Origin: Patescibacteria group bacterium
Lineage (GTDB): Bacteria > Patescibacteriota > Dojkabacteria > J137
Assembly (NCBI GenBank): GCA_016861265.1
Contig: BOLA01000001.1
Span: forward strand, 598,229 to 662,228
Direction of reading: 5' to 3'
Length of the DNA stretch: 64,000 nt
Shown here: in pieces, positions 31,336 through 62,315 of the stretch
How the letters are laid out: every line of letters begins with the position of its first letter
Position numbering within the stretch: the stretch's first letter is position 1
The notes under the pieces: model-generated
What the model was told of the DNA's origin: nothing
Seen by the model: the letters and a program-made list of their open reading frames with translations, nothing else
Databases searched by the model: none
Made by a program: the position numbers and the translations under genes

Positions 31336-34300
31336 ATGAAAAGTGTATCAATAATAGTTACTATAGTAATGAACTCACCCCTACTAAGTTATAAAAAAAG
31401 AAAAAAACGAAATCGAAATATTATTCTTTCTAGTATAGTAATCACTTTTCTTTCTATAGCTATTTTCTCAAGATTATTCGCGGCCACAAGTATAAGTTGG
31501 AATTTTGATGTCGCAGAAGATTATTTATCCTCAGATAACAACAAGGTTCAAATTAATAACGGAGATGTAACTTTAAAACAAGTCGTTACAAACCTATCTG
31601 AAGATACAGATATCGAATTTAATGATGGAGAACATATTAATACAATGTCTTCAAATAATAAATTGACATTAGGGGGAACTAAATCTCCCGTTCCCTCAAA
31701 TTCGTCTGGACTTGTTGCGCAATATAGGGCTGAGAACAATTGGGATAATGAAAAGGGTACCGGTAGTGTATCTGTTGTGGGATCACCAACCTTTGTGGCA
31801 GGGCAGATAGGTACAGGGGTAAGTTTTGACGGTACTGATGATCAGGCAATCGTTAATTCTAATTTTGGTCTTACCACCACAAATATTTCTGTTGAGTTAT
31901 GGGTTAACCTAGATTCAATCTCAGAAAACGGATCATTTGTGAAAATTGGTGGAACGGGAAATGGTGGAATTGCTGTCGGGGTAGGTTCAACTACATTCTT
32001 AGATGGTGGTAATAATCTGATTCTTTTATATGAGGGAGTTCGATGGATTAATACAAATGTAAGGATTGGAACAGGCTGGCACCATATTGTAATGGTGGTT
32101 AATAGCTCCGGAGTTCCTTCCGCATATATAGATGGACGTCTGATTGGAACCTTTGCCGGTACTAATGCAATTGCCCCTGTAAACAACAATGTTTATATTG
32201 GAGGTTATTTCGCTTCAGGTGCTAGGTTTGCTGATGCAATCATAGACGAAGTATCGATATATAATATTGATTTAAGTGGGTCGCAGATATTTCAAAATTA
32301 CCAGAAAGGAGCCGCACTCATAGGAGAGTATACTTCTAGTGTAATTGATTCCAATGCAACGGATGGAGTGCCGTGGGATTCCTTAAATTGGATACCTAGT
32401 GGCCCCTATGGAGTTGAACTCCCAAATAATATGCAAACTGAAACAACTTACCCAACCGGTAATGTAGATATGAGTGGAAATCTTGCTCTTTGGCATTTCA
32501 ATAATAACGGACAAGATAGTAGTGGTAATAATAGAAATGGGACTTTGGCAGGCAACGCTCAATATGTAACCACTTCTAAATTTGGTAGTCACTCAGCTTC
32601 TTTCGACGGAGCTGGAGATTATGTTTCTTTAGGCAATAATGCATTAGGTAATTTAGGGAATTTTACACTTTCTGCATGGATTAAAACTCCAGACACAAAT
32701 ACCTCCAGATATATTCTCACTGAATTCAGACCAAGCTGCGGTGATGCAATTTGGTATATTGATGCAAATGGTATTCCTACGTATATAGATGGTGCAGTAA
32801 CATTAAATAGTGGAGGTACGAGTGTAGAGGATAATAAATGGCATCATATTGTTTACGTATATGGTGGAACCTATGGGAAGCATTACATCGATGGAGTTCC
32901 TCAGCCAAACTCCACCGGAGCAATTTGGAGAAGCACTTGCAGTGCTGCTGACGTAAGAATAGGAATTGATGCGCAAGGAGCAGGATCATTTTTAGGTAAT
33001 ATTGATGAATTAGCAGTATTCAATAGGGCATTAACCCAAGAGGAAGTATCAGCGATATATAACCGTGGTGGGCAAACAGTTAAATACCAAGTGAGAAGCT
33101 GCAACGATAACCTATGCGATGGGGAAAATTTTATAGGTCCTGACGGATCACCAAATACTTACTACTCAATAGAAAAAAATCAGGTTACTTCAAATCCATC
33201 CATAGAATTCTCTAATTTAAACAACAACAGATATTTTCAATATAAAGTAACATTAGAGGCCCATACACAAAATGCGCTTCCGACTATAGGTTCAATAAAT
33301 TTATCTTACGAAAGTTATGCAACTGATAATCCGTATGTAAACCCTGTTTCCTCCATAGACTTGGGCGGCATTCCAAAAACAATTTCTAAATTTTGTGAAG
33401 GCACTCTTAATGGTTCAAATGAATGTACTACAACAAGTGTAAAGCCATTGGGTACGGAAATTCATTATCAAATTTGTAATGATTTAGTCTCTAACTGCGA
33501 TATAAACAATACATGGAAGTACTGGGACGGTGATAGTTGGGAAAACGCAGATAATACAGAATTCAATACTGCCTCTGACGTTTCAAGTAATATCGAGCAG
33601 TTCATTCCTTCTTCAAGATATTTATCGTTTAAATCATTCTTAAGTTCAGGAGGCAATTCTACACCAACACTAAAAGATGTTTCGGTCTCCGCTACTTTAG
33701 ATGGAATCCCACCAGTAACGAATGCATCAAATATTCATTCAAATGGTTACAACAGTAATGACTGGATAAGAAATAAACCCTTAATAGAATGGAGTGAAGG
33801 AGAAGATGATCAAGAAGGGGTAGGTCTTCTGGGTTACTGTGTGGCACTAGACGAATCTAACCTGGGAAGTAGTCAGAATTTAAACCCTTCAACAAGCGCT
33901 GGAGTTTTACAGAGTCTAGATGATGGAGTTTCTCAACAATATTGTCCATACATTGTTACGGGTACAAGCATTAATTTGAATTCAATTCAGGGGCTGAATC
34001 TAGTTACAAATAAACAATATAATTTTTCAATTAAGGCGGTTGATATTTCCGGCAATATTTGGAATGGAAGCAGCGAGGATTATCAAGACTTATTTACATT
34101 CCGATATGATGGTACTGCACCTAATAATCCTGCTTTTATTTCAATGCCAAGTAATTTTATACAAAGTAAGGATGTAACAATAACCTGGCCAACGGAAGGA
34201 GCAAATGGTGCAAGCGATGTAGGTTCGGGATTGGCCGGATTACAATATAGGATAGGGCAGAATGGTGTATGGTATGGAGATCTTCACAATGGCAATCAAG

Positions 34301-45646: not shown

Positions 45647-47002
45647 ATGCTAAAAGATTATTATGAATTGTTTATGGATCAGAATTTAACTCCTACACAG
45701 CCAAATACTAACCCTGTTAGTGATATACAGCCACATTTGCCGTTGGCATCTGCACCTTCTCCTGTGCAGCCTGCTGCACAAGCTCAACAGTCCGCAGTAA
45801 TACCGAGTACAGAGCCAATAACGGTTTCGAATAAGCCAACACAGAATCAATTAGATGAGGCGGCGCAGGGGGCCGATGCTTACGATATGAATGTATTCGA
45901 TGAAATTACACTTTTAAAGAAAAAAGTGGCAGAGGCAAACTTACCTCAAGCATTAAGAGAGAAGGCACAAGGTATGATTTTAAGATTGGTAAAAATGTCT
46001 CAAAAGGGAAATTTTTCCGCTGAATTTGAACCTGTCTCTGAATACATTAATTGGATAATTAAAATTCCCTTTGGACAATACACCCAAGACAACATTGAGA
46101 TTGATACTGTAAAAGCTACACTTGATAAGTACAATTATGGTCTTGAGCCGGTGAAAAATAGAATACTAGAGTATTTAGCGGTATTAAAGTTACAAAATAA
46201 AACTAATATTCAGGTCGAAACTAGCGAATTAAGTATATCCGATGAAATGAAGAGACTCCAGGGTAATTCTTCTCATGCACCAATTCTTTGTTTTGTGGGA
46301 ATTCAAGGGGTAGGTAAAACGTCTATAGCTAAGGCTATTGCCACAGCATTGGATAGAAAGTTTATGAGATTGGCTTTAGGAGGAATGGGTAATGTAACAG
46401 AAATTAGAGGAATTCCCAGGGGTAGCGAAGGAGCAGAGCCAGGTCAAATAATAAAATCATTAGTGCGAACTGGAGTAATGAATCCTTTGATTCTACTGGA
46501 CGAAATTGACAAAACAAGTTCTCAGAGTGGCGTTAGGACAGATGTCATGGCAGCTTTGCTTGAAATTTTAGATCCGGAGCAGAACTCGACATTCTCTGAT
46601 AAATATTTAGATTACCCAATAGATCTATCTAAATGTATATTTATTTGTACGGCAAATAACTTAGGAGGAATCACGGCTGCTTTGCTAGACCGTCTTGAAG
46701 TTATACGTTTCGGCAGTTATACCGACAGTGATAAAGTTATGATCGCTAAAAATTATCTACTGCCAAAAGTTCGTGAGGCTACAGGGTTGGGAGAAGATCA
46801 GTTAGCCTTTGCAGATGACGTATGGCCTACAGTAATTAGACCTCTGGGCTTTGACGCGGGAGTTAGACAACTGGAAAGAACTTTAACAGAACTAGCAAGA
46901 AAAGTGGCATTGCAAATTGTTAGGGGCACAGCTAAAAGTGTAACAATTACGAAGGAAAATTTTAGAGAGTTTATTCCAGAAGATATTGGAGTTTATTCAT
47001 AA
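45647..47002 (+). CDS. Lon-like AAA+ ATPase lacking both the LON N-terminal substrate domain and the S16 protease domain
   Basis: The AAA+ module is collinear with Lon: the N-terminal helical end, Walker A (ILCFVGIQGVGKTSIAKAIA), MRLALGGMGNVTEIRGIPRGSEGAEPGQIIKSL, Walker B (LILLDEIDK), ALLEILDPEQNSTFSDKYLDYPIDLS, LLDRLEVIRFGSYTD and GVRQLER. The ORF stops exactly where the protease domain would begin and is followed by its own terminator. The N-terminus is a Pro/Gln-rich low-complexity region. Confidence 0.7.
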   Translation: MLKDYYELFMDQNLTPTQPNTNPVSDIQPHLPLASAPSPVQPAAQAQQSAVIPSTEPITVSNKPTQNQLDEAAQGADAYDMNVFDEITLLKKKVAEANLPQALREKAQGMILRLVKMSQKGNFSAEFEPVSEYINWIIKIPFGQYTQDNIEIDTVKATLDKYNYGLEPVKNRILEYLAVLKLQNKTNIQVETSELSISDEMKRLQGNSSHAPILCFVGIQGVGKTSIAKAIATALDRKFMRLALGGMGNVTEIRGIPRGSEGAEPGQIIKSLVRTGVMNPLILLDEIDKTSSQSGVRTDVMAALLEILDPEQNSTFSDKYLDYPIDLSKCIFICTANNLGGITAALLDRLEVIRFGSYTDSDKVMIAKNYLLPKVREATGLGEDQLAFADDVWPTVIRPLGFDAGVRQLERTLTELARKVALQIVRGTAKSVTITKENFREFIPEDIGVYS

Positions 47003-47762: not shown

Positions 47763-48986
47763 ATGTTTGGAAATAATAGAAATAAGAAAATAGTGAGCAG
47801 AAGCTCAAACTATCATTTGGCCATCGATATCGGTACTGAATTCGTTAAATCTGCTGTATTTAAAGAAGAGGATAACGAAGTTATTATATTGGGCTACAGT
47901 AGAATAAAACAAAGAGAGTCATCAATGTATGCGGCATTTATAATTAATTTGCAGGCGGTTATTGAGGCATGCGACAGAGGAGTTGGGGAAGCAGTTGCTC
48001 AGGCAATGGAAAAAGAGGGAGATAAATTTGTAATTCCTAACGATGTAATTATAGGTATTGCCGGTGAGTTGGTTCACGGAGTAACAATTATGGTTAATGT
48101 GGAAAGAGACAATCACGAAGCTAAGATTACACAAAAGGAGATCGACAAATTCGTAGAAAAAGTAAAAAAGTATACATTTTCTAGTACAGTGGAAGAAATC
48201 TCGCGAGAAATGGGGTTAAAAGCAAGTCAAGTTATAGAAGTAAATACAACCATTAACAGTGTTTATATTGATGGAATGAAGGTTATAAACCCATTAGGTT
48301 ATTCCGGTAACGAATTAGTTTATAAGGTATTTTCAACATTTGCACCCAAGATTCATTTAGATTCAATTAACCAAGTAGCCGATGCTTTAAATTTAAGATT
48401 AAGCAAGATTGTAGTAGAGCCCTATTCACTAGCGGTAGGCTTAAGAAATATGAAAGATCAAGATGCAAATGCCATAATTATTGATGTCGGAGGTGGTACT
48501 ACCGACGTTGCGTTGGTGAGCAATGGAGATATTATAGGTACAAAAATGTTTGCCATTGGCGGTAAGGTTTTTACAAAGAGAGTGCAGAGGGAGCTTGGCG
48601 TTGATTATGAAGAAGCTGAAAAAATAAAAATAGATTACTCGAATGGTGCTGTTTCCAAAGATGTCGACCTTAAATTAAGTAAAGCTTTTGAGATGGATAT
48701 TTCAACCTGGTTAACCGGAGTTGAAATAGCTTTAGAAAGTTTTAACGATGTAAAAGAGTATCCAAGTCAGATTTATATTTGCGGTGGTGGAGCATTGCTG
48801 CCTGAAATTCAGGAGGGTCTAATGACTTACCCATGGCTACAGACCTTGAATTTTAAAAAGTTTCCAAAAGTGAGCTTTATATTCCCTAATGCGTTGAGTA
48901 GTGTTTTGGATAAAACTAAGAGTGCTACTTTACCTATGGATGTAACTCCGCTAGCATTAGCTAGAATGCATTTAGAAAATTTATAA
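47763..48986 (+). CDS. second actin-fold ATPase of the FtsA/PilM family (not the ftsA at 8701)
   Basis: YHLAIDIGTEFVKSAVF (phosphate-1), IIDVGGGTTDVALVSNGDIIGTKMFAIGGKVFT (phosphate-2/adenosine) and the C-terminal actin-fold blocks. 407 aa. Confidence 0.7.
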   Translation: MFGNNRNKKIVSRSSNYHLAIDIGTEFVKSAVFKEEDNEVIILGYSRIKQRESSMYAAFIINLQAVIEACDRGVGEAVAQAMEKEGDKFVIPNDVIIGIAGELVHGVTIMVNVERDNHEAKITQKEIDKFVEKVKKYTFSSTVEEISREMGLKASQVIEVNTTINSVYIDGMKVINPLGYSGNELVYKVFSTFAPKIHLDSINQVADALNLRLSKIVVEPYSLAVGLRNMKDQDANAIIIDVGGGTTDVALVSNGDIIGTKMFAIGGKVFTKRVQRELGVDYEEAEKIKIDYSNGAVSKDVDLKLSKAFEMDISTWLTGVEIALESFNDVKEYPSQIYICGGGALLPEIQEGLMTYPWLQTLNFKKFPKVSFIFPNALSSVLDKTKSATLPMDVTPLALARMHLENL

Positions 48987-49001: not shown

Positions 49002-51146
49002 GTGTCGATTTCGTCATCCGAAAAAATTTTTATTGACCCTAGGGAGGAAATAACCTTTATTGTTGAACGTCTTTTAAAGGCGGAAAAAGACAGGGTTATT
49101 CTTGTCGTTCCTCAAAATTCCTTGCTACTAAGTAGTTTAGTTAGTATAGATATTCTTTTTAGAAAATTAGTTAGAACAAAGAAACTTGCGATTATTGTCA
49201 CAGAAGATGAATATGGTAAGTCTATTGCCTCTAAAGCAGGATTTGTAGTAGTAGATAAAGTAAGTCAGATTACAAATGAGCAGTGGAACCTAGGAAATAA
49301 CCGAAAAATTTCCATAAAAGAAATCTTAGACGAGAGAAAGAAGGCTTTGTTGGCCAATATTAGTGGTGAAAGTCATGACATAGAAGAGCTGCCTGAAATT
49401 CCAGGTACCGAAGATATAGAAGAGTATCAGGTTACGGAGCAGGAAATGGACGAAGTTGTAACGAAAAGTGTGGGATTGCCATACGAAGAGGTTTTAGAGA
49501 AGAAAGAAGAGATTCTTGATGAAGTAGAAGATGCAGTGGAGTTGGTTAATAATCAAACTGATGTAATAGAAGAATCACCTGTGGTACCTGAGGTGCCAAC
49601 TGCGGAAGATTTAGAAAAACAGGAACTAGAATCTTCTCTAAAAAAGTACGCAAAGCCAAGAAGAGAGGTTAAGGAAGTTGAATTAGACGGTATAAAGCTT
49701 GTGTCTGGCGGTGATATAAAGAGTTACATTGATTCTAAAGAAAGTGCTAAAATGGCAGATAGTAACAATTCTTTCACTCAAATGACAGACATAAATATAG
49801 ATAGAAAAATTAAAAAGGTGGGCTCTTCGTCCTTTACAGGAAAAGACTTTACAAAAAAAGTAACAGACAAAGGTGGTCTCGGGGCTCTGTTTTCGAGATT
49901 TAGCTTGAAACGAAGAAACCCGGATTTTAGAGACGAAAATGACTTTATAAAAAAAAAGAATAGAAAAAAAATTCTAATTACTACTTTTGTATTATTTATT
50001 CTATTGTTCGCTGTAGGAGGCTATGTGTTAGCGTTTCAGGTATCAACAGTAGATATTACTTTAACATTAAGAGCGCAAGATGTAAGCACATCTGCAACTG
50101 TATTGTTAAGCACTAGTGCGGAAGAACTCAGTCTGGAGAGTCCAATTACAATTCCTGCAAAGGAATATTCAATACCAGCCGATAATTTAAGTATTTCTAA
50201 GACCGGGACTGCTGATGGCAATAGTAAGAGAGGCGCTAAAGCAAAAGGGGTCGTAACAATTTATAATCTTACAGCTGAAAGTGTTACATTGGGAGCGGGA
50301 ACAAAGTTTAAAAATGTTACAAATGGATTAATTTATGTTTCCACAACTGAAGTTGTATTAGATCCGGCTACTGTCAGTTCAAATATTAAAACTCCAAGCA
50401 CTAAAGATAATGTTGCACTAGAGGCTGAAAATTTTGGACCTCAATTTAACATCGAAGTTTCTGATAAAACAAGATTCAGCATTGAAAGTTATAGTACAGA
50501 GGAAGAAATGAGTGCAACTGCATTCCAATCATTTCAGGGGGGAACTGAAGAGGCATTTACATCTGTCTCGCAAGAGAATTACGATAAATTAAAAGAAACA
50601 ATTGTACCGGATTTAAAGAAACAAGGGTTAGACAGGTTAAAATCCCTAACCGAGAGTGGATACCAGTTAATTGAAGGTACAGTTACATACGATGAAACAA
50701 AAACCCCTGAGTCTTTGCCAAAGGTTGGAGAAGAGGCAAAAGATAAGACTTTTAATTTAACAGTTCAGATAGGTATTAAGGGACTTGCAGTTAAAACGAG
50801 TGATCTAACAGAAGCTGTCAGTGCTGTTTTAAAGAATAATGCTCAGAATACGAATGGTGGAAATCTTCAGATTGATGACATAATGAATCCGCAAATCGAT
50901 AAGGTAGAAAAGAATGGAGATGATTATGTAGTAACTGTTTCTTCTAAAGGTTCGGTTAAAACCCAAATTACTCCTGAGCAAATGAAGAAAGATATATCTG
51001 GATTGACTATTCAACAGGCAAATGATTACTTTAGATTAATCGATTATATTCAGGATTATAGAGTGAATTTTAATCCAGGATTTGTACCTGACAGTATAAA
51101 ACGTGTCCCTTCCGATACATCACGAATTAATATTAAAACAAAATAA
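49002..51146 (+). CDS. bitopic membrane protein (714 aa): cytoplasmic N-terminal domain plus acidic linker, single TM, large extracytoplasmic C-terminal domain
   Basis: GTG start 16 nt after the FtsA/PilM-like gene. TM at about residues 330-352 (ILITTFVLFILLFAVGGYVLAF). No recognisable family. Confidence 0.5.
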   Translation: MSISSSEKIFIDPREEITFIVERLLKAEKDRVILVVPQNSLLLSSLVSIDILFRKLVRTKKLAIIVTEDEYGKSIASKAGFVVVDKVSQITNEQWNLGNNRKISIKEILDERKKALLANISGESHDIEELPEIPGTEDIEEYQVTEQEMDEVVTKSVGLPYEEVLEKKEEILDEVEDAVELVNNQTDVIEESPVVPEVPTAEDLEKQELESSLKKYAKPRREVKEVELDGIKLVSGGDIKSYIDSKESAKMADSNNSFTQMTDINIDRKIKKVGSSSFTGKDFTKKVTDKGGLGALFSRFSLKRRNPDFRDENDFIKKKNRKKILITTFVLFILLFAVGGYVLAFQVSTVDITLTLRAQDVSTSATVLLSTSAEELSLESPITIPAKEYSIPADNLSISKTGTADGNSKRGAKAKGVVTIYNLTAESVTLGAGTKFKNVTNGLIYVSTTEVVLDPATVSSNIKTPSTKDNVALEAENFGPQFNIEVSDKTRFSIESYSTEEEMSATAFQSFQGGTEEAFTSVSQENYDKLKETIVPDLKKQGLDRLKSLTESGYQLIEGTVTYDETKTPESLPKVGEEAKDKTFNLTVQIGIKGLAVKTSDLTEAVSAVLKNNAQNTNGGNLQIDDIMNPQIDKVEKNGDDYVVTVSSKGSVKTQITPEQMKKDISGLTIQQANDYFRLIDYIQDYRVNFNPGFVPDSIKRVPSDTSRINIKTK

Positions 51147-51641: not shown

Positions 51642-53282
<1,641 letters not shown>

Positions 53283-53294
53283 TAGACGCTTATT

Positions 53295-53323
53295 AAAGCC
53301 AGCCGTAAGGCTGGCTTTTTTTA
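53295..53323 (+). terminator. rho-independent terminator (AAAGCCAGCC-GTAA-GGCTGGCTTT-TTTTT)
   Basis: Perfect 10-bp stem, GNRA loop, long U-tract after groEL. Confidence 0.8.
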
Positions 53324-53382: not shown

Positions 53383-53709
53383 ATGAGTAACTTACTTTTT
53401 GTCTTTTACTGGTGGTACGTAATACTAGTAAAAGAATTCTGGCGAAGCTATGTATTGGGTAGATTAGTTTATAACTTGAATCTAACAAATACTTTGCCCA
53501 TGGCAAAGCATATATCGGATCCATTGTTCCAGGACGATTCCGGTATCGGCAAATCTTTCGGTTTTATTATTAGATTTATTTGGATAGGAATTGGATCTTC
53601 TATTAGTGTAATCGTAACAGTTCCCTTCTTCATTTTTGGAATATTTTTATTGGTATTGCCCTTATTACCGTTAATACAATTAGTTACATACTTAAATACA
53701 TTATTATGA
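53383..53709 (+). CDS. small polytopic membrane protein, 4-nt overlap with (likely translationally coupled to) the Clp-like ATPase
   Basis: Three hydrophobic helices. ATGA overlap with the next start. Confidence 0.4.
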   Translation: MSNLLFVFYWWYVILVKEFWRSYVLGRLVYNLNLTNTLPMAKHISDPLFQDDSGIGKSFGFIIRFIWIGIGSSISVIVTVPFFIFGIFLLVLPLLPLIQLVTYLNTLL

Positions 53710-56285
53710 ACGGTAAGGTACTACTAGCAAAATACAAAAATTCAAGAATATTCGTAGACTTTGGTTCACTTACATTCTTTAAGGGAGATAAACATGCTCT
53801 TTACAAACTTGAACAGAATACAGGAACCTTATTAGAAATATTTACAGCACTTCTTTTTGGAATACCCATTGTTATTCAAATCTTGAATGGAGAACTTAAT
53901 CTCTTGAATTTTTTGATACCCGATAATCTACTAAACTATTTGCCGTATATAGGTATCTACACATTTATTTTTGCAAGATTTTTAAAGCGAGATAGGAATA
54001 AATTCGATGAGGCGGTGAAAAACTATAATTTGCTTGCTGTAAATAAGAAAATTGAAGCGGGTGCTGACATGGAACTTACTGTAAATCACTACATTGACTT
54101 TGAAACACTTACAATATTAGATAAAGCTTTGGCAGATAAGGAAAGAGCTTTTATAGTTACATTATGTAAACTACTAACAGAAGATACAGAAATTGAACAC
54201 TTCTTAGCAAACAGATTAGGTATTAATAGAGATAAGTTTATAGAAGTTGTAAACCATAATAGTCACAATGCAAATTTCACACTAAATAATGCTTATAGAA
54301 CTTTATTTCTTTACTTGTTCGATGAAGCCCTAAAGCTTGAATCTAATACTATTAATAAGTTCGTATTATTCTTTGTTTTAAATAAATACTTTTTGAAAAA
54401 TATTTATTTTGACCTAGGTGTAGCAGAATTGGAATTAGAGGGTTTGAGAATTTGGTTTAAGAATGAAACAAAACAAAGAGAGTACTATATTAAGTGGGAA
54501 AGACTATCAAAATTCAAACCAAAAGGAGATGTTAATAGGGCATACACATCTAGACCTACACCAGTATTAGATGAGTATGCGGAAGATTTAACAAGTCAGG
54601 CTGCACTTGGTTTATTCATGTTGTCCGTGGGCAAGGATCAAGAATTGAATAGGGTTGTAGAAATTATGGAAAGAGACAAGGCGAGTGCATGTATGATTCT
54701 CGGAGATCCGGGCGTTGGAAAAACCAGATTCTTAAGGCATTTAGCAACAAGAATGGTTGTGGAAGATATTCCAGGTAGACTCTATGATCACAGATTGTTA
54801 TCCATTGATTTAAATAAAATCCTTACTAAAATTGGTACAGTTGATTCGTTTAAGCAGGTTCTTCAGAGAATTTTTGAAGAGGTTCGTTACTCAGGAAATG
54901 TGATTCTAGTACTTGAAGAATTTAGTCAAATACTTAACATAAGAGAAGAATCGAAACTGGAGGTTGTTAATTTGATTGTAAATGCAATAAATAATTTAAA
55001 CCTAAGATTAATTGCTACTTCTAATAATTCAAGTTATTCAAAATATGTTAAACCGTTAAAATCACTTTCCGCGTTGTTCGATGTTGTAGAGCTTAAGGAG
55101 CCATCTTCAAATGTAGCTCTACAAATTCTAATCGATGAGGTTCCAAGAATTGAGAAAAAATACAAAGTGAGTGTAAGGATTAATTCTTTAAAAAGAATTG
55201 TAGAATTTGCACCAAAGTTCGATCAGGACAGAGTAATGCCCGATAAAGGTATAGATCTATTTGAAGAGGCCTGTTTAGCAGCAAAGAATAGAGGGTTAAC
55301 ATTCCTAGATGTGTCAACGGTTGATGAAATTCTTTCTGAAAAAGTAGGTGTAAAAGTAGGTAATTTATCTGAAGGGGAAAGTCATACATTAATGGCTATG
55401 TCGGAACGAATGCATGACAGAGTTATTGGGCAGAATGAGGCTGTAGATGCTGTCGCATCTGCAATTAAAAGATCTCGTTCAGGACTGACAAATACTAAAA
55501 AACCAATTGCGTCATTTTTATTTTATGGACCTACTGGTGTTGGGAAAACAGAAGTGGCTAAAACTTTGGCCGATGTCTACTATGGCAGTGAAAACTTATT
55601 GATCAGACTAGACATGTCGGAATATCAGGAAGATCAAAATCTTAATAGAATTATTGGATATACCGATGACAAAGGCAATTTTATAGGCGGATACTTGACT
55701 GAGTCAGTCAGATCAAGACCTTTCTCGTTGGTGTTGTTGGACGAAATAGAGAAGGCTAATAAAAAGGTCTTAGATCTATTCCTACAAGTTTTAGATGAAG
55801 GTACTTTAACTGATGGTTTAGGTCGAAAGGTAGATTTTACTAATACCATAATAATTATGACTTCAAATGTAGGTTCTGACTTAATTGCGAAAGAAATCTA
55901 CGAAGGTAAAAAATACCACGATGTGGAAAAAGATGTGACAAATAAACTAAGGGAATCTTACAGGATTGAATTTTTAAACAGATTTGATAAATTAATAATG
56001 TTTAGACCGTTATCAAAAATTGAGATTGAGCAGATTGTGATGCTGATGTTGAAAAAAATAGATGATAATTTAATGCAAAAAGGAATTGGTATTTCCTGGA
56101 ATGAGGCAACTTTGGTAGAATTAGCAAACCTTGGTTATAGCGAGATGTTTGGTGCAAGAGAATTAAAAAGAATTGTGCAGGAAAACATAGAGAATAAATT
56201 AGCAGATTTAATAATTCAGGGTAAACTACGAAGCGGTACAGAAGCAGTTTTTAATGGATTAACTGTACAACAAGTGGTAAATTAA
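53706..56285 (+). CDS. Hsp100/Clp-family double AAA+ ATPase (ClpA/ClpC-type, no long M-domain) with an unusual N-terminal region containing hydrophobic segments and Clp_N-like repeats
   Basis: D1: Walker A (MILGDPGVGKTRFLRHLA), EDIPGRLYDHRLLSIDL, NVILVLEEF, PDKGIDLFEEAC. Linker: HDRVIGQNEAVDAVASAIKRSRSGL. D2: FLFYGPTGVGKTEVAKTLA, LIRLDMSEYQED, SLVLLDEIEKANKKVLDLFLQVLDEGTLTDGLGRKVDFTNTIIIMTSNVGS, C-terminal GARELKRIVQ. The N-terminal 280 aa hold two hydrophobic helices and ELTVNHYIDFETLTILDKAL-type Clp_N repeats. No [LIV]G[FL] ClpP-docking tripeptide is visible after the TSNVGS block. Confidence 0.75.
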   Translation: MNGKVLLAKYKNSRIFVDFGSLTFFKGDKHALYKLEQNTGTLLEIFTALLFGIPIVIQILNGELNLLNFLIPDNLLNYLPYIGIYTFIFARFLKRDRNKFDEAVKNYNLLAVNKKIEAGADMELTVNHYIDFETLTILDKALADKERAFIVTLCKLLTEDTEIEHFLANRLGINRDKFIEVVNHNSHNANFTLNNAYRTLFLYLFDEALKLESNTINKFVLFFVLNKYFLKNIYFDLGVAELELEGLRIWFKNETKQREYYIKWERLSKFKPKGDVNRAYTSRPTPVLDEYAEDLTSQAALGLFMLSVGKDQELNRVVEIMERDKASACMILGDPGVGKTRFLRHLATRMVVEDIPGRLYDHRLLSIDLNKILTKIGTVDSFKQVLQRIFEEVRYSGNVILVLEEFSQILNIREESKLEVVNLIVNAINNLNLRLIATSNNSSYSKYVKPLKSLSALFDVVELKEPSSNVALQILIDEVPRIEKKYKVSVRINSLKRIVEFAPKFDQDRVMPDKGIDLFEEACLAAKNRGLTFLDVSTVDEILSEKVGVKVGNLSEGESHTLMAMSERMHDRVIGQNEAVDAVASAIKRSRSGLTNTKKPIASFLFYGPTGVGKTEVAKTLADVYYGSENLLIRLDMSEYQEDQNLNRIIGYTDDKGNFIGGYLTESVRSRPFSLVLLDEIEKANKKVLDLFLQVLDEGTLTDGLGRKVDFTNTIIIMTSNVGSDLIAKEIYEGKKYHDVEKDVTNKLRESYRIEFLNRFDKLIMFRPLSKIEIEQIVMLMLKKIDDNLMQKGIGISWNEATLVELANLGYSEMFGARELKRIVQENIENKLADLIIQGKLRSGTEAVFNGLTVQQVVN

Positions 56286-56304: not shown

Positions 56305-56685
56305 ATGAATAAAAAAAAGTTGATCTCAATAATTGTCTTAGCCCAGAGTGTTTTAATGGCATTGCCAGTAGCAGCTCAAGGACTGACTAATGTTAGTCAG
56401 AATTATGCAATTCCTAACCCTACAAGATACAGTAGTCTGGAAGACATAATTAATGCATTGACTTCGCTAATTAGACCTGTCTTTATTATTACATTTGGTG
56501 CAATGATACTTTATGGAGGATGGGTTAGATTAACATCTCAAGGTAATCCGGATAAAGTTAAGTCAAGCTCGCAAATCATAGTTGCAGCAATTGTAGGTTT
56601 TGCAATTGCAGTGTTTGCACCTACAATTGTTGACTTTGCGGGTAAATTGCTAGGTATTCAAGGTGGATTAATACAGAATCAATAA
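56305..56685 (+). CDS. pilin-like protein paralog 1 (VirB2/TrbC-like topology: signal peptide, two hydrophobic helices joined by a short polar loop)
   Basis: Signal (LISIIVLAQSVLMALPVAAQG). Helix-1 (VFIITFGAMILYGGWVRL), loop (TSQGNPDKVKSSSQ), helix-2 (IIVAAIVGFAIAVFAPTIV). Confidence 0.55.
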   Translation: MNKKKLISIIVLAQSVLMALPVAAQGLTNVSQNYAIPNPTRYSSLEDIINALTSLIRPVFIITFGAMILYGGWVRLTSQGNPDKVKSSSQIIVAAIVGFAIAVFAPTIVDFAGKLLGIQGGLIQNQ

Positions 56686-56686
56686 T

Positions 56687-57298
56687 ATGAAACTAAAAGC
56701 TTTATTATTCATAGTAATTACAATAATCCTTAGTTCGGGTATTAAGTTATCGGCACAGTCTACAGACTGTATAGCCCCATATTTTATCCCTGATGATTGT
56801 AGTGTGCCTTATGTACCTGGTAAATCAGGGGGTTATACTGCAGATTTAAATTGTCAGATCGTTCGAATTACTAAACCTGGAACCGAGGAGGCTAAATGTT
56901 GTCCCAATATTTGTGTAAATGAAAATGGTGATAGGGTAAGTGCCCAGCTTCCGTCCGAAATTACGCAGACCGAGGTATTTGGAACTACTATTAGAATTAA
57001 TCCGGATAATTCAGGGACGATTATAAATATACTGTTTACAACAATATTGGGTCTTGTTTCTGTTTACGCAATTGTGAGAGGTATTTATGTTACTGGAGTA
57101 AAAAGACCAATGGCTATTACACCCGACCAAATCGCGGAAATTAATAAAGAACTTACAAATTTAATAATAGGTGTAGTTATTTGCTGGGGCTTTATAATCT
57201 TAATTCAAGTAGTCGCCAACCTATTAGGAGTAGGTCAGTTAAATAATCTAGATATTTCCGGCGGAGAATCTGGAGGAACAATTATTACTATTAAATAA
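56687..57298 (+). CDS. pilin-like protein paralog 2 with an N-terminal Cys-rich extracytoplasmic module
   Basis: Signal, 7 Cys in the first 80 mature residues, then helix-1 / KRPMAITPDQIAEINKELTN loop / helix-2. Confidence 0.5.
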   Translation: MKLKALLFIVITIILSSGIKLSAQSTDCIAPYFIPDDCSVPYVPGKSGGYTADLNCQIVRITKPGTEEAKCCPNICVNENGDRVSAQLPSEITQTEVFGTTIRINPDNSGTIINILFTTILGLVSVYAIVRGIYVTGVKRPMAITPDQIAEINKELTNLIIGVVICWGFIILIQVVANLLGVGQLNNLDISGGESGGTIITIK

Positions 57299-57858
57299 TG
57301 AAGACTTTATTGCTAACAATAATATTAAGCATATTCTTCTTTGCTCCTGTGTATGCACAAGAAAATTCAGGCGGATTAGCAAATCAGACGGTCACATGCG
57401 TTAACTGTACAATAGATAACAATATTGGGCTAGAGGAAATTAGAGTTCCTGTTTTTGCTAGCTTTATTGATTTCAATACTGAAAATGCGAGCATATTTAG
57501 CTGGGTATCGTTCATCGGAGCTTTAGCTACCGTAGGATTGGTTATTTTCTGGATTTTTCTTCTGGTTAAAGCTGGTGTAAGAGGATTGCAGAGCCAGGGC
57601 AACGCAGATACATTGGCTGAGGCATTTAAACAGGTTCAATCGGTACTTATTGGAGCTGCAATCTCACTGTTCTTCCCCCTAGTACTAAGTATTATAGGTG
57701 TATTCTTTGGAATTGGCACTATCTTTAGTTGGCCTAAAATGTTTCAGTTTTGCGATGAGTCGTCTGGTGTTCAATTTTATTATCAGGCTCTGTTAGCTGA
57801 CGATGTAAAAGGAGATAAGTCAGCCGCAGAGGCTAAATGTAACCCAATAGGAGAATAA
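57298..57858 (+). CDS. pilin-like protein paralog 3 with a Cys-containing C-terminal tail
   Basis: Signal. Helix-1 (VGLVIFWIFLLVKAGVRGL), loop (QSQGNADTLAEAFKQ), helix-2, then a C-terminal tail with 2 Cys. Confidence 0.5.
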   Translation: MKTLLLTIILSIFFFAPVYAQENSGGLANQTVTCVNCTIDNNIGLEEIRVPVFASFIDFNTENASIFSWVSFIGALATVGLVIFWIFLLVKAGVRGLQSQGNADTLAEAFKQVQSVLIGAAISLFFPLVLSIIGVFFGIGTIFSWPKMFQFCDESSGVQFYYQALLADDVKGDKSAAEAKCNPIGE

Positions 57859-57859
57859 T

Positions 57860-58291
57860 ATGAAAAAATTAATATTGCTAACTTTTATAATCGCTTTTTC
57901 GGTATTGCCTTTCAGCATTAAGGCTGCTACTGCTTCAGATGTCTTGCCATGCGATCAGTACGATACATCGGCCTTTGATGCGTGTGGGGATGTTAACGGA
58001 CAAGTTACTGATCTTATAAAGTTCGCTTTGGCAGCAGCTTTCGGAGCAATTATATTATATGGCATTTTCTTGATAATTAAGGCTGCACTTACTATAATTA
58101 GGAGTAATGGTGATCCGGGCCAAGTAGAGGCCGGTACAAATATTATAAGAGGTGTTTATATTGGCATAGGAATCATCTTTATAGGAATAGTAGGGCTTAT
58201 TATTGTTATTGCATTCTTTGGTGCAGGTGGTATATTGAATACAGCAGTAAATACACCAGGTAATACTGTAATACCAATAATTACAAATTAA
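57860..58291 (+). CDS. pilin-like protein paralog 4
   Basis: Signal. Helix-1 (AIILYGIFLIIKAALTIIRS), loop (NGDPGQVEAGTN), helix-2 ending AFFGAGG. Confidence 0.55.
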   Translation: MKKLILLTFIIAFSVLPFSIKAATASDVLPCDQYDTSAFDACGDVNGQVTDLIKFALAAAFGAIILYGIFLIIKAALTIIRSNGDPGQVEAGTNIIRGVYIGIGIIFIGIVGLIIVIAFFGAGGILNTAVNTPGNTVIPIITN

Positions 58292-58317
58292 ATTATTTAT
58301 TTTATTAAAATACTCTT

Positions 58318-58806
58318 ATGTTTAGAAATAAGAAACTTGCAGGAATCATGGTAGGAGCATTTTTATTAGTTGCACCATTGGTTTCTCCATTGTTAACAGT
58401 TCAAGCTCAATCAAGAAACTTGATTTGTACTGTTTTCCCATTTATTAATAGTGTTGGAGCATTTGGAATCAGCTCATTGTGCGGTGATGTTAATGCAACA
58501 AGTACATCTGATACAATCAAAAGTACTTTTAACTTAATTGTGTCTTTAATATTTGTAGCAATAATCATTTTCTCAATCTACGTGATTATTAGAGCTGCAA
58601 TTAAATACATTAGATCAGAAGGAGATCCAGCAAAAATTGAAGAGGCTCAAAAGGCTATCAAGTCGGTGTTTATCGGTATTGCTGCATTATTTGTAGGCTT
58701 AATCGGTATTATCATTATTATTGCATTCTTTGGTGCAGGTGGTGCATTAACTACAAATCAGGTTAATAACCAGGTAAACCCACTATTGAATTCAATCTTG
58801 AATTAA
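58318..58806 (+). CDS. pilin-like protein paralog 5 (closest paralog of no. 4; shares IRSxGDP...AFFGAGG)
   Basis: Signal. Helix-1, loop (IRSEGDPAKIEEAQKAIKS), helix-2 ending AFFGAGGAL. Confidence 0.55.
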   Translation: MFRNKKLAGIMVGAFLLVAPLVSPLLTVQAQSRNLICTVFPFINSVGAFGISSLCGDVNATSTSDTIKSTFNLIVSLIFVAIIIFSIYVIIRAAIKYIRSEGDPAKIEEAQKAIKSVFIGIAALFVGLIGIIIIIAFFGAGGALTTNQVNNQVNPLLNSILN

Positions 58807-58824
58807 GTTAATTAGAATTTTATA

Positions 58825-58851
58825 AAGCCCAGGCCAAGCCTGGGCTTTTCA
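58825..58851 (+). terminator. rho-independent terminator (AAAGCCCAGGC-CAA-GCCTGGGCTTT) closing the five-gene pilin-like operon
   Basis: Perfect 11-bp stem plus a T-rich tail. Confidence 0.7.
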
Positions 58852-58916
58852 TTTCTTCTTGATTAGCCTTAACCTTTAATCTATAGTGTAATAAGTATTA
58901 ATATTAATAATTTCTC

Positions 58917-59810
58917 ATGGGAAAGAATAAAAAACTCCTTTATCTGCTACTCATACTTAATCTGATTTTTGGTCACGTAGCGATTGTTAGTGCACAATTA
59001 CAGTCTTTCGATTTTTCAGGGAATAATGCTGAAAGTTATCAATGTTTTGATAAGGAAACAGGAGAGAACCTAACAGATGAAGATACTGAGCCAAGTGGTG
59101 TTAAATTAAATGTGCAAGGTCCTGATGATTTTGGTAATTTCTATTGTTGTGGGGGCACTAATTCGGGTTATACACCAGTAGGGTTAGATTGCGCTGCGGG
59201 TCAAACAAAGATCATTGCTCAACTAAAACCACCTGCGCTACAGCAAATAGAAGTTTGGTTCGTAAGAATTTTATATGCAATTTGGGGACTTGTAGCATCT
59301 CTATCTTTTCTATTTCTAGTAAAACTTGGTTATGAATATATTATCTCAAGAGGAGATCCTACCAAGATTACTGAAGTTAGAAAGAAGATTGTGAATTACA
59401 TTATTGGTTTTGCACTGGTTTTCCTGGCTGTTCCTATTTTGACTACAGTATTCCGTCTTTTAGGAATAAATACAAATGCGCAATGTTACAACGTAAATAT
59501 GCCAGGGTTTCAATTCTTTTATAGCTCTCTATGTACCGATCCTAAAGGGGTAATTGCAGCAAAATTTGCCTCCAACCCATGTACGGCATTTAATGACGGA
59601 TCAGATCCTGAAGGCATAATCTGTAAAGGAACTGGCTATGAAGGTGTTACGAGAGGTTGTGGAGTTATTAGGGGTATTTATAATATTTCATTAACTTGCG
59701 ATGTTCAAACAGGTGACACTGCAGCAACATGGTGCAAAACCAGAGAACTTACTTTGCCGCTGTTGGGACTCGTTTACTGTGATTCATCCTGTAACCCTAC
59801 AAGGTGTTAA
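58917..59810 (+). CDS. pilin-like protein paralog 6 with Cys-rich N- and C-terminal extracytoplasmic modules
   Basis: Signal. Cys-rich N-module, helix-1 (ILYAIWGLVASLSFLFLVKLGY), loop (ISRGDPTKITEVRKK), helix-2, and a C-terminal domain with about 12 Cys. Confidence 0.5.
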   Translation: MGKNKKLLYLLLILNLIFGHVAIVSAQLQSFDFSGNNAESYQCFDKETGENLTDEDTEPSGVKLNVQGPDDFGNFYCCGGTNSGYTPVGLDCAAGQTKIIAQLKPPALQQIEVWFVRILYAIWGLVASLSFLFLVKLGYEYIISRGDPTKITEVRKKIVNYIIGFALVFLAVPILTTVFRLLGINTNAQCYNVNMPGFQFFYSSLCTDPKGVIAAKFASNPCTAFNDGSDPEGIICKGTGYEGVTRGCGVIRGIYNISLTCDVQTGDTAATWCKTRELTLPLLGLVYCDSSCNPTRC

Positions 59811-59819
59811 AAGTTATAA

Positions 59820-61316
59820 ATGTTTAGATTTAAATCATTTAAAACTAACGGTTCTGTGATTAACTTTAAGGACTCAAGTCTTAGTCTGGAGTCCTTAAAC
59901 TCATTTCTTGCGAATCTAGAAAATCTATCATTAAATTCAGAAATTGAGTTTAATGTTGAAAATTTAGACGGCACAATTGCAAATTATAAGTTGATTAACG
60001 ATGGAACTATAAAGGCGTATAAAGACAATAAAAGTATTGTTGAAAATGATTTTTATAGGTTAGTCAAAAATAATTTTCATCTTGAATTGACTCCCCAAAT
60101 TATGCAGGCACGAATAGTGCAATACAATTCTCAGATAAGGGAAACGATTAGTAAATTATCTATACCAATTTCGCCTGACTTGGTAAATAAAATCGCCGAG
60201 GCAAAAAATACTATTGAATCTGTAAAAAATTCAATCGAATCCAGCCTAAGTGAGGAACAAAAAGATAAATACTCGAGGCTCACAGAGCTAAATTCAAGAT
60301 TGAATTCGATTCAGAATCAGATAGATTCTTTTCAAGGAAGTAAAAAGAGTAAAGAGGATATTACCACTAATATTAAAAAATATAATACCGATAAATCCAC
60401 TATAAAACAGATGATGGAATCTGTGGGTCTACTTATTAAAACAAGAGATGAATTAAAGCAGAAAGTGCTAAGTTATAACCATTTAATACAAGATGCTGAC
60501 AAGGTTAATCAGCTAAAACAGCAAAAAATGCAATTTCAGAATTCTCAACTCTTTACAAAATCACAGTCTGCAATTAATAGTTCCGAAGATGATTCTGCTA
60601 GCTCAAACTCAAAATTCAAACTTAAACTTAGCATAATTCCTATTTTGTTATTCCTAAATATTGCAATTTCTATTGTAGGCTTTCTTTACTCTTACGATTT
60701 TAACGTTCTAGTCGTAGCGGTAGTATCAACTGTTATCTTAATGACAGCTTATATTGTCTCTAAATTCTTTAGCGATTCATTGGAAGACCTGAATGAAGAT
60801 TCAAGTAGAGCAGAGGTAATTGATATTAAGCAAGAATCAAATCCATTGGCTAAAGAAGACCCAAATGCCCAATTATTCATAAATTCTGCCTGGGTTAATG
60901 CATTAAACAACGAACTGAATGCAGTAGAACAGAATATTCAAAAAAACCTTAATGGAAAAGACTACGAGTCAATAAAGAATGAATTACAACAAATTGAAAA
61001 TTTAATAGTGCAGGAAGAAAAGAAATTAACGGATTTATCCGCTAATTCAATTACTTCGGATGAATACTATAAAAAGAGAAGGGAGGCAGATATTCTTAAA
61101 ATAGAGCGAGAAAATCTTGAATTTGGACTTAAGATTGATTCAAGCCTAAACGACCAGAGAATATCTGCCGAAAAAACATTAAAAGAACTCTTGGACAAGC
61201 AAGCATTTGCCAGTAAGTTGTCTATGAGTTTCCCAGTATTTTTAGTAAAAACGAGTGAAATTCAGCACACAAACATTGATTTATTGAATCAGATAGTACT
61301 AGTTCTGTCCAATTAA
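59820..61316 (+). CDS. bitopic coiled-coil membrane protein (498 aa; TM near residue 280)
   Basis: Long heptad-rich N- and C-terminal regions flanking LSIIPILLFLNIAISIVGFLY...VVAVVSTVILMTAYIV. Confidence 0.45.
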   Translation: MFRFKSFKTNGSVINFKDSSLSLESLNSFLANLENLSLNSEIEFNVENLDGTIANYKLINDGTIKAYKDNKSIVENDFYRLVKNNFHLELTPQIMQARIVQYNSQIRETISKLSIPISPDLVNKIAEAKNTIESVKNSIESSLSEEQKDKYSRLTELNSRLNSIQNQIDSFQGSKKSKEDITTNIKKYNTDKSTIKQMMESVGLLIKTRDELKQKVLSYNHLIQDADKVNQLKQQKMQFQNSQLFTKSQSAINSSEDDSASSNSKFKLKLSIIPILLFLNIAISIVGFLYSYDFNVLVVAVVSTVILMTAYIVSKFFSDSLEDLNEDSSRAEVIDIKQESNPLAKEDPNAQLFINSAWVNALNNELNAVEQNIQKNLNGKDYESIKNELQQIENLIVQEEKKLTDLSANSITSDEYYKKRREADILKIERENLEFGLKIDSSLNDQRISAEKTLKELLDKQAFASKLSMSFPVFLVKTSEIQHTNIDLLNQIVLVLSN

Positions 61317-61330
61317 CGTTATAATTAGAT

Positions 61331-62107
61331 ATGTCTAATAACGCCAATGCAAGCAATAATCAGGAAACTTCAAAGAAAGAGGCGGTATTTCCACAGCCAG
61401 TTTATCCAGGAAGTATGTCAAACCCGTTTAATGGTTATTACTACTATCCCACGAACATGCAACCTCCCAAAAACAATAGAGACTATGTTTCGAAGATGAG
61501 GCTGCAGGAAGCTGATAAGATTGTACCTAAACAATCAGGGCTGCCTTGGTCCTCAATAATACTAAAGCCCAATATCGTTTTCGAAACTCAAGATGCAAAT
61601 GAGAAAGTCTATGTATTGGTAAGAGCACATTGGATAACAAATCTAGGATGGTTTCTAAGGAATTTGTTCATGGCACTTTTGCCGTTTATTGTACTATCTC
61701 TGTTAGAAAATTTTGGAATCAGAATCGATATAAGCTTTATAAGTAATAAGGCATTAACCATTGTAGGACTGTTGTATTATTCGTTTATATTTACAAGTAT
61801 TGTAAGTAACTTCATTGATTGGTATTTTGATCCCTTTATAGTTACTGACCAGCGTATAATGGACTACGACTATAAACCATTCGGTAATTACAGTGTTTCT
61901 GAAGTCTCTCTACAAGATATTCAAGATGTAAAGGAAAGATCTGCGGGGTTACTTGGTGACATTTTTAATTATGGCAATGTATACGTGTACAGTGCAAGCG
62001 ACGCATCTGAAATGATTTGCAAACATGTTCCATCTCCAACAAGAGTTAGAGATATTATTACAGATTTATCTAATGTAGCAAAAACTTATAAATATGATAG
62101 TGTCTGA
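61331..62107 (+). CDS. membrane protein with a bacterial PH-like (bPH_2/YdbS-like) domain
   Basis: Pro/Asn/Tyr-rich N-terminus, two TM helices (LFMALLPFIVLSLL; LTIVGLLYYSFIFTSIV) and a C-terminal region (DWYFDPFIVTDQRIMDYDYKPFG...) typical of the YdbS/DUF304 arrangement. Confidence 0.45.
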   Translation: MSNNANASNNQETSKKEAVFPQPVYPGSMSNPFNGYYYYPTNMQPPKNNRDYVSKMRLQEADKIVPKQSGLPWSSIILKPNIVFETQDANEKVYVLVRAHWITNLGWFLRNLFMALLPFIVLSLLENFGIRIDISFISNKALTIVGLLYYSFIFTSIVSNFIDWYFDPFIVTDQRIMDYDYKPFGNYSVSEVSLQDIQDVKERSAGLLGDIFNYGNVYVYSASDASEMICKHVPSPTRVRDIITDLSNVAKTYKYDSV

Positions 62108-62315
62108 ATTTTTTACACCAGAAATAATAGAATTTATAAAAATAATAGTCATTATTATTGGTTTGGTTCATCTTTTAGCAGGCTTTATATTAGTTTTTCA
62201 GACCTTTAGAATGAACCGAATTATTAAGACTTCAGGCTTTCCTGTATTTAACCTTATTGCAATCGCTTATATTGCAGTTCTTCTAGCTACACTTATTTTG
62301 ATAATTACAGCATAA
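62094..62315 (+). CDS. small two-helix membrane protein, 14-nt overlap with the upstream gene
   Basis: 73 aa, two hydrophobic helices. Confidence 0.3.
   Translation: MIVSEFFTPEIIEFIKIIVIIIGLVHLLAGFILVFQTFRMNRIIKTSGFPVFNLIAIAYIAVLLATLILIITA

Follow-up and report, generated by a model that had tools for sequence, protein, structure and literature searches.

The DNA stretch analysed here, referred to as the window, comprises 64,000 nucleotides (nt) of contig BOLA01000001.1 (positions 598,229 to 662,228, forward strand) from a bacterium of the Dojkabacteria, a lineage of the Patescibacteria or Candidate Phyla Radiation (CPR). Its segment 53383-56285 consists of two plus-strand genes, which encode a membrane protein of 108 amino acids (aa) and an Hsp100 ATPase of 859 aa. 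Comparison of sequences and profiles places the ATPase, which is tethered to the membrane and uncharacterised, among the relatives of the protein-unfolding motors ClpB and ClpC; in CPR bacteria it is always paired with the small membrane protein. Both genes precede an array of genes for VirB2-like pilins. The ATPase is tentatively interpreted here as a protease-free remodeller or extractase of membrane proteins, for which the VirB2-like proteins would be the most likely clients in Dojkabacteria-type lineages, a reading to which we give somewhat less than an even prospect. No description of such a module, of a membrane-anchored Hsp100/Clp protein in CPR or of a link between Clp proteins and pilins was found in the open-access part of PubMed Central or in bioRxiv, which agrees with the initial annotation of this DNA, made from the sequence alone, in which no described Clp-family ATPase in a pilin-related role was known.

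Membrane anchor, N-terminal domain and linker of the ATPase

The ATPase gene (53706-56285, plus strand) opens with a region (residues 1-93; 53706-53984) that is predicted from hydropathy, charge bias and an AlphaFold2 (AF2) model to form a basic cytoplasmic N-tail with a beta-hairpin, followed by a transmembrane (TM) helical hairpin. Hydropathy places the two hydrophobic helices at residues ~39-60 and ~75-93, and they are kept in essentially all of the full-length relatives (100+). The mean number of lysine and arginine residues amounts to 7.3 in the N-tail, 1.1 in the loop between the helices and 4.9 just after the second helix. Because of this charge distribution, the hairpin is predicted to have both of its ends inside (N-in/C-in), which places the ATPase in the cytoplasm and gives a probable topology to the hydrophobic N-terminal helices reported in the initial annotation. 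In the confident AF2 model, built with 107 sequences (pLDDT 88.4, pTM 0.74), residues 4-18 form a beta-hairpin and residues 29-60 and 75-93 form helices; a helical domain (109-236) and a long helix (241-270) precede the two AAA+ modules, D1 and D2.

The helical domain (residues ~109-236; 54030-54413, plus strand) is a divergent Clp_N-type domain. The Pfam and NCBIfam libraries gave no match, Clp_N included, within the N-terminal 300 aa of the ATPase, and profile methods were therefore needed to recognise the homology. The N-terminal region of the Dojkabacteria-type proteins was compared by hhalign with that of the CPR homologs of ~900 aa which have Clp_N in precomputed tables; the match (99.8%, E 1.7e-29) spans the hairpin, the N-domain and the linker. 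A family profile of the N-domain run against the PDB retrieved almost only Clp N-domains (ClpC2, ClpA, Hsp101, Hsp104 and ClpC; lowest E 1.2e-4). The Clp_N-like character proposed earlier is retained on these grounds. In three of the CPR relatives (P0078, P0096 and P0120) PF02861 is given in the precomputed tables, but it was outside the best 25 families in our hmmscan search.

The N-domain is connected with D1 by the long helix and a family-specific linker, KPKGDVNRAYTSRPTPVLD (residues ~241-300; 54426-54605, plus strand), delimited by family conservation and by the helix of the AF2 model. The linker motif, KPKGxVNRAYTSxATPxLD, lies at 54516-54575 (residues ~271-290). It is kept across the whole CPR family and has no counterpart in ClpB alignments.

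A degenerate first ring and a ClpB-type second ring

The D1 module (residues ~305-530; 54618-55295, plus strand) keeps the AAA+ fold and a Walker A motif, GDPGVGKT (residue 333), and in Pfam it is matched weakly by generic AAA families (AAA_16) and by AAA_lid_9 (2.3e-07). Its Walker B motif reads LVLEEF (L-E-E-F), with EE, DD, DN or ED across the family, and its arginine fingers are gone, the ERRF of ClpB being aligned to SALF (A456/L457). The pore loop KYRG is replaced by IGTVDSF, in which the pore-loop tyrosine is absent. Many of the non-Dojkabacteria CPR relatives (P0078-P0120) have no recognisable Walker A in D1. By these motifs, D1 is judged to be catalytically degenerate, with the fold and the P-loop retained. 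The M-domain is absent as well: the D1 lid reaches to ~529 and is followed by D2 from ~537, which leaves ClpB residues ~390-535 without a counterpart. Of the earlier description of both AAA+ rings as intact and collinear with Hsp100 proteins, the collinearity is confirmed by the Pfam matches and by the superposition of the AF2 model on ClpC and ClpB; the intactness, however, does not hold for D1, with its LEEF motif, A456/L457 in place of the fingers and no pore tyrosine.

The D2 module (residues 537-859; 55314-56285, plus strand) is of ClpB type, with matches to AAA_2 (2.4e-49) and ClpB_D2-small (9.4e-20). It possesses Walker A at residue 608, the Walker B DE pair at 679/680, the sensor-1 asparagine N721, the arginine finger R759 and the sensor-2 arginine R818, and these catalytic residues are invariant or nearly so among 107 relatives. 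D2 aligns without gaps to the D2 of ClpB (E ~1e-86), including the stretch after TSNVGS, in which the ClpP loop of ClpA and ClpC is situated and over which ClpC chains are ~8 residues longer. The spacing from sensor-1 (TSN) to the arginine-finger motif EFLNRFD is 33-34 aa in 108 of the 109 relatives, and between these two points no [LIVM]G[FLM] tripeptide was found, again in 108/109. This is the state of ClpB, without a ClpP-docking loop, as had been suspected from the first reading of the sequence. As a whole, D2 is nearer to ClpB than to ClpA/ClpC and, by its motifs, a complete motor. Its pore loop is GYTDDKGNFIGG (DDKGNF) in place of GYVG, and the aromatic residue of this loop is kept in all of the Dojkabacteria-type members scored (66/66).

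Placement among Hsp100 proteins and relation to known systems

The ATPase has the features that define class I Hsp100/Clp proteins, i.e. two tandem AAA+ modules, a D2-small domain and a divergent Clp_N domain. In the PDB, phmmer matched it to ClpB at 1.7e-111, and Foldseek with the AF2 model retrieved ClpC and ClpB (E between 1e-50 and 1e-40), the alignment to full-length ClpC extending over more than 800 columns. The NCBIfam equivalogs for ClpB, ClpA, ClpK, ClpG and ClpV were all matched far under their cut-offs, with 466.5 bits against 1232.1 for ClpB (TIGR03346), 417 against 993 for ClpA (TIGR02639) and 389.7 against 884.95 for ClpV/TssH (TIGR03345). Identity as ClpV/TssH was rejected on this score and in view of the window annotations, among which there are no genes of a type VI secretion system. 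Homology to VirB4, VirB11 or PilB was likewise rejected, as no Pfam or NCBIfam match to them was obtained and all significant matches were to Hsp100 or generic AAA+ families.

With ClpB/Hsp104, the ATPase shares the order of N-domain, D1 and D2, the catalytic motifs of D2 and the short segment that replaces the ClpP loop. It differs from them in lacking the coiled-coil M-domain, the D1 fingers and both canonical pore tyrosines, and in having a TM hairpin and a small membrane partner; membership in the disaggregases was therefore rejected, since neither the M-domain nor a competent D1 is present, the pore tyrosine is lost in both rings and the equivalog score is below the cut-off. The likeness to ClpA/ClpC lies in the two-ring fold (the best Foldseek matches are ClpC chains), in the Clp_N-type N-domain and in the lack of a long M-domain, the last as in ClpA. 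Unlike these proteins, the ATPase has no IGL/VGF loop, its D1 is degenerate, it is anchored in the membrane, and the UVR-type M-domain that ClpC has is missing. The label ClpA/ClpC-like, given in the initial annotation, thus fits the overall fold and fails for D2, which is closer to ClpB and has a pore loop other than GYVG.

Some resemblance is also seen to ATPases outside the bacterial Clp family. Msp1, which works protease-free, its counterpart ATAD1, and FtsH have an N-terminal membrane anchor that puts the AAA+ entry face at the membrane, as is expected here. However, they are single-ring ATPases of the classical clade, FtsH with a protease, whereas the present protein belongs to the Hsp100 family and combines a pseudo-D1 with a ClpB-type D2; the likeness is one of mechanism, and the homology goes no further than the AAA+ fold. 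Torsin, a ClpB-D2-like AAA+ protein without aromatic pore loops, needs the membrane-spanning cofactors LAP1 or LULL1; it has no arginine finger of its own, unlike D2 here with R759. Plasmodium Hsp101 is a ClpB-type motor at a membrane complex, the PTEX translocon. There, the exit face of D2 docks on the pore and the motor pushes outwards, while the anchor of the present ATPase sets the entry face at the membrane. VirB4 is accepted to be a cytoplasmic ATPase acting on membrane-integrated VirB2, for which dislocation has been proposed. The downstream genes resemble VirB4 systems in being arrays of VirB2-like T4SS_pilin genes of the kind described in Patescibacteria; the difference is that the ATPase is unrelated to VirB4, VirB11 and PilB and that the array does not stand beside virB4 in the window.

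We propose a family that is defined by the TM hairpin, the linker KP.G.[VIM][ND]R[AS].T, a D1 that is degenerate, a D2 of ClpB type and, encoded directly upstream, a membrane protein of 105-135 aa with WWY and GR.ISF motifs. The ATPase of the window shows all of these features, and its named homologs come from Candidatus Dojkabacteria (WS6) and other Patescibacteria.

The small membrane partner and the transcription unit

The small partner gene (53383-53709, plus strand) encodes a hydrophobic protein of 108 aa, and its stop codon shares an ATGA overlap with the start of the ATPase gene, so that the coupling to a small upstream membrane protein noted earlier is borne out. The protein carries the motifs WWY ... 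KN.F.P.[FY]GQ.D..GR.ISF..R, and its AF2 model (pLDDT 93.9) is all-helical. Neither Pfam nor NCBIfam gave a match. Homologs are 105-135 aa long, start/stop-coupled and located directly 5' of the ATPase gene. The small gene adjoins the ATPase gene upstream in each of the 19 loci with readable upstream DNA, and again in L022-L024. The family makes up at least 798 clusters at 90% identity, and a search at E<=1e-3 gave 718 representatives among 1.84 billion representative proteins; the named members are all Patescibacteria 'hypothetical proteins' without a Pfam domain. By sequence, the small protein belongs to an uncharacterised Patescibacteria-wide family, and it may act as a membrane-embedded adaptor or co-anchor of the ATPase.

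Two strong intrinsic-terminator-like hairpins were found on the plus strand of this region. The first, 3' of groEL (53295-53318), has a 10-bp stem, in which 6 pairs are G-C, and a T run behind it; the second, after the fifth pilin-like gene (58824-58848), has an 11-bp stem with 7 G-C pairs. There are no strong hairpins between them, and the scan revealed no terminator-like site between the ATPase stop codon and the next gene, 19 nt further on. Because terminators flank this segment and none lies inside, the genes of the small partner and of the ATPase most likely form one transcription unit with the first five pilin-like genes; its upstream boundary is set by the hairpin at 53295-53318. The groEL gene (51660-53282) stands upstream of the small gene, across this strong hairpin. 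Membership of the unit in a groESL heat-shock operon was therefore rejected.

The pilin-like gene array

The ATPase gene is followed on the plus strand by six pilin-like genes (56305-59810), each encoding a signal peptide and two TM helices. The gathering cut-off of PF18895 (T4SS_pilin), 26.6 bits, is passed by three of the six, and a hidden Markov model (HMM) of the paralogs matches all six, two of them being seen by this model alone; the succession of six pilin-like genes described in the initial annotation is in this way substantiated. Paralog 1 (56305-56685), a VirB2-like pilin of 126 aa with signal peptide and two TM helices, reaches 34.4 bits with PF18895 and has positional orthologs in L001, L012, L003 and L015. 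Paralog 2 (56687-57298; 203 aa) scores 20.2 bits, below the cut-off, and is matched by the paralog HMM at 1.2e-21, and paralog 3 (57298-57858; 186 aa, signal peptide and two TM helices) is matched by it at 1.1e-21; both have positional orthologs. Paralog 4 (57860-58291; 143 aa; paralog HMM 1.6e-21) is 48% identical to paralog 5 (58318-58806; 162 aa), which reaches 27.7 bits with PF18895 and also matches the paralog HMM. Paralog 6 (58917-59810; 297 aa), beyond the terminator, has a cysteine-rich ectodomain, a PF18895 score of 38.0 bits and a positional ortholog as well.

The paralogs are 25-48% identical to one another, yet they are positionally orthologous between genomes. By these comparisons, the array is an old and ordered set, and the idea of recent tandem duplicates serving antigenic variation was rejected for the same two reasons. 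Arrays of VirB2-like pilins are known in Patescibacteria, where 441 arrays of 2-11 genes have been described (PMC12102498), and pilins are essential in Southlakia epibionticum (PMC10633639). The main texts of these two papers mention no Clp or AAA+ partner.

Conservation of the module across Patescibacteria

A genome-wide survey with the linker pattern KP[KT][GN]xVNRAY, taken from an alignment of eight sequences, yielded 14 loci; the pattern is narrow and the survey small. Among all loci examined, the pilin array lies 3' of the ATPase gene in 14/14 of Dojkabacteria type, down to 33% identity and in a fixed order of paralogs. In the window and in L001-L004, L008-L012 and L014-L016, the ATPase gene is succeeded by 6-8 pilin-like genes on the same strand, the first of which overlaps the ATPase stop codon in L003, L014 and L016. 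In the locus of P0079, which is 33% identical, the precomputed annotation places a 580-aa gene and then T4SS_pilin genes after the ATPase gene, and its upstream context differs, with RecA where groESL stands in the window.

By these comparisons, the small protein and the anchored ATPase form a two-gene module that is conserved across Patescibacteria. The linkage of the ATPase to pilins exists within the Dojkabacteria-type lineages and is mostly missing outside them, where the downstream neighbours are a Glycos_transf_4 gene, an aminoacyl-tRNA synthetase with an M16 peptidase, or a sensor kinase. A gene for tRNA-guanine transglycosylase (TGT) is located 1-4 genes upstream of the module in L005, L007, L018, L020, L021, L022 and L023, and in L007 and L023 the module stands just past mraZ-rsmH and before the Glycos_transf_4 gene. 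The records of L008, L009 and L018 are titled 'uncultured Candidatus Saccharibacteria bacterium' or 'uncultured Gammaproteobacteria bacterium', titles that are at odds with their gene content.

A probable counterpart in Southlakia epibionticum

In S. epibionticum ML1, SEML1_0700 is an 'AAA family ATPase' of 860 aa, in which AAA_2 (544-706) and a D2-small domain are matched, D1 is weak and Clp_N is not matched, and SEML1_0701 is a hypothetical protein of 127 aa, the gene of which overlaps SEML1_0700 from upstream (PMC10633639 Tables S1/S2). The two are probably the Saccharibacteria counterpart of the module, matched by domain architecture and gene arrangement, not by sequence. In transposon-insertion sequencing both genes were classed as NE, NE and GD over three passages, with falling read counts (PMC10633639), so that they are non-essential and growth suffers late. 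The same genome also encodes a ClpC (SEML1_0512, with Clp_N and UVR) and a ClpP (SEML1_0493), both non-essential (PMC10633639). If the equivalence holds, the module would be a distinct paralog beside the ordinary Clp system, and it would not be required for the essential pilins.

Proposed mechanism and alternative explanations

In the proposed mechanism, the ATPase hexamer would be held at the membrane by twelve TM helices together with the small partner, with the N-domain and the inactive D1 ring, i.e. the entry face, against the membrane. D2 would be the sole motor and D1 an assembly or scaffold ring. Such a machine, working without a protease, could remodel membrane-embedded clients or pull them towards the cytoplasm, much as Msp1 does or as FtsH would minus its protease. 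The co-transcribed VirB2-like two-TM proteins would be the clients in Dojkabacteria-type lineages, where the process may serve dislocation from the membrane pool, turnover or recycling, and the conserved cytoplasmic loop R..GDP.K of these proteins might be used as a handle. Pulling inwards is favoured over feeding outwards because Hsp100 substrates enter at the N/D1 face and the anchor turns this face to the membrane. A connection between the ATPase and its small partner or the pilins is predicted from gene context and architecture, and an extractase of membrane proteins with pilin-like clients is plausible on this basis. A more specific version, in which the Dojkabacteria Hsp100 and its partner are the dedicated ATPase of a heteromeric VirB2-like surface structure, dislocating or retracting its two-TM subunits, with an Msp1-like protease-free extractase CPR-wide, is regarded as rather unlikely. 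The initial annotation had suggested an ATPase that extracts or feeds membrane-embedded subunits, in a role normally filled by VirB4-, VirB11- or PilB-type ATPases. The part of this suggestion that stands is that of a tethered, ClpP-independent ATPase in the same unit as the pilins; it does not stand as a general or a VirB4-replacing role.

Several observations weigh against pilins as clients or against threading as the mode of action. In the seven other CPR locus types (L005, L006/L019, L007/L017/L023, L018/L022, L020, L021 and L024) the module is found among housekeeping genes, and a pilin-like gene is nearby in one of the seven (L006/L019), where it is single and on the opposite strand; the co-conservation of the ATPase with pilin-like paralogs, raised in the initial annotation as a point to be checked, is thus complete in Dojkabacteria-type loci and does not extend to CPR as a whole. 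The pilins of S. epibionticum are essential and SEML1_0700/0701 are not, the homology of the latter being drawn from architecture. The pore loops are non-canonical, with no aromatic residue in D1, and in 25/33 of the non-Dojkabacteria CPR relatives the D2 loop is short and also lacks an aromatic residue (e.g. DVDGTL, TAEGEG), which is unusual for a threading Hsp100. Because of these pore loops, processive threading is doubtful for much of the family.

The alternative that survives best, possible although doubtful, is general proteostasis. The ATPase would then be a CPR ClpB-like disaggregase or holdase that acts at the membrane on misfolded or mis-inserted proteins, and its adjacency to pilins would reflect inherited gene order. 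Such a role would suit a D2 that is nearest to ClpB and a module that is widespread in CPR without pilins, as well as the mild fitness phenotype, and nothing beyond it, of the probable Saccharibacteria counterpart. The neighbourhood, rich in proteostasis genes (YidC, a Lon-like AAA+ protein, GroES and GroEL), is also in line with it; the unit is, however, divided from groESL by the strong terminator. Moreover, there is no M-domain for coupling to DnaK, D1 is dead and the pore loops depart from the canonical ones. The adjacency to pilins survives to 33% identity despite a changed upstream context, with start/stop overlap in some lineages, and a canonical ClpC coexists in S. epibionticum, both of which speak against this alternative.

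The lack of pore aromatics leads to another explanation, judged unlikely, in which the D2 ring is a non-threading, Torsin-like ATP switch that assembles, disassembles or gates a membrane complex with the small partner and translocates no polypeptide. The pore aromatic is missing from D1, and from the D2 loop of the 25/33 non-Dojkabacteria members, a dedicated small membrane partner is always co-encoded, and the family-specific linker motif is conserved without a known role. Against this, D2 differs from Torsin in that it retains sensor-1, sensor-2 and an arginine finger of its own, the aromatic of the D2 loop is present in every Dojkabacteria-type member scored (66/66), and the Clp_N domain, which serves for substrates or adaptors, is kept.

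The ATPase might also be a dedicated pilus-biogenesis enzyme that replaces VirB4, VirB11 or PilB and feeds pilins outwards into a filament. The operon linkage with VirB2-like genes in Dojkabacteria would agree with this, and no VirB4-sized P-loop protein is encoded within the 64-kb window; nevertheless two Dojkabacteria genomes are listed as VirB4-positive (PMC12102498 Table S1). In addition, the family occurs elsewhere in CPR without pilins, the orientation of the anchor leads one to expect an inward pull, and the probable counterpart in S. epibionticum is dispensable where pilins are essential (PMC10633639), so that this explanation is considered very unlikely. That the ATPase is an unfoldase of ClpP docking through a non-canonical interface is hardly credible: some CPR genomes do encode ClpP (SEML1_0493), but the IGL/VGF segment has the length of that in ClpB with no tripeptide in 108/109 relatives, the ClpA equivalog score is far below its cut-off, and tblastn with an approximate ClpP query found no ClpP in the window or in the 24 related loci fetched, which also have no second Hsp100.

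Other genes of the window

The window has a G+C content of ~35% and carries housekeeping genes for FtsA, FtsZ, sigma-70, RNase Y, a class-I aminoacyl-tRNA synthetase, YidC, L25, GroES and GroEL. The Lon-like AAA+ protein is encoded at 45647-47002 (plus strand); it has 451 aa and consists of the Lon AAA+ module (positions 254-572 of TIGR00763; 359.7 bits, with the cut-off at 608) and Lon_lid. Without the protease domain, it is a second protease-less AAA+ protein near the Hsp100, and versions of 389-415 aa stand at the same place in L001 and L003.

An FtsA/PilM-like actin-fold protein is encoded at 47763-48986 (plus strand) and, 16 nt further on, a protein of 714 aa (49002-51146, plus strand), which has no informative domain and, as judged by eye, a hydrophobic stretch near residue 340. 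This pair is kept upstream of groES-groEL in Dojkabacteria loci. It is paralogous and possibly pilus-related, since the regular FtsA (8701-9987) and FtsZ (10167-11336) are encoded elsewhere in the window. Past the pilin array, three conserved genes (59820-62315, plus strand) encode proteins of 498 aa (low-complexity and coiled-coil-like, with a central TM pair), 258 aa and 73 aa. The 258-aa membrane protein has weak bPH matches below the Pfam cut-offs, and the overlapping 73-aa protein is DUF5657; among the counterparts of these genes in L001 a SpoIID gene is inserted. The gene at 31336-36312 (plus strand) encodes a protein of 1658 aa with Laminin_G_3, purple-acid-phosphatase-N and fn3 domains. 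This large protein probably belongs to the cell surface or serves adhesion.

Significance

The two-gene module has been retained over many Patescibacteria lineages despite their tiny genomes. It brings together features not known to occur jointly in Hsp100 proteins, in that the ATPase is anchored by TM helices, its D1 is a pseudo-ATPase, its D2 is of ClpB type with neither M-domain nor ClpP loop present, and a small subunit in the membrane is dedicated to it. S. epibionticum, in which the probable counterpart SEML1_0700/0701 tolerates transposon insertions, is genetically tractable. If the ATPase is an extractase of membrane proteins, bacteria would have in it their counterpart of the Msp1-type dislocases. 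If the proposed role in Dojkabacteria is true, it would connect Clp proteins with the VirB2-like surface structures on which the epibiotic lifestyle is believed to rest, and the protein would be the first Clp-family ATPase in the dynamics of pilins or of filaments of the type IV secretion system.

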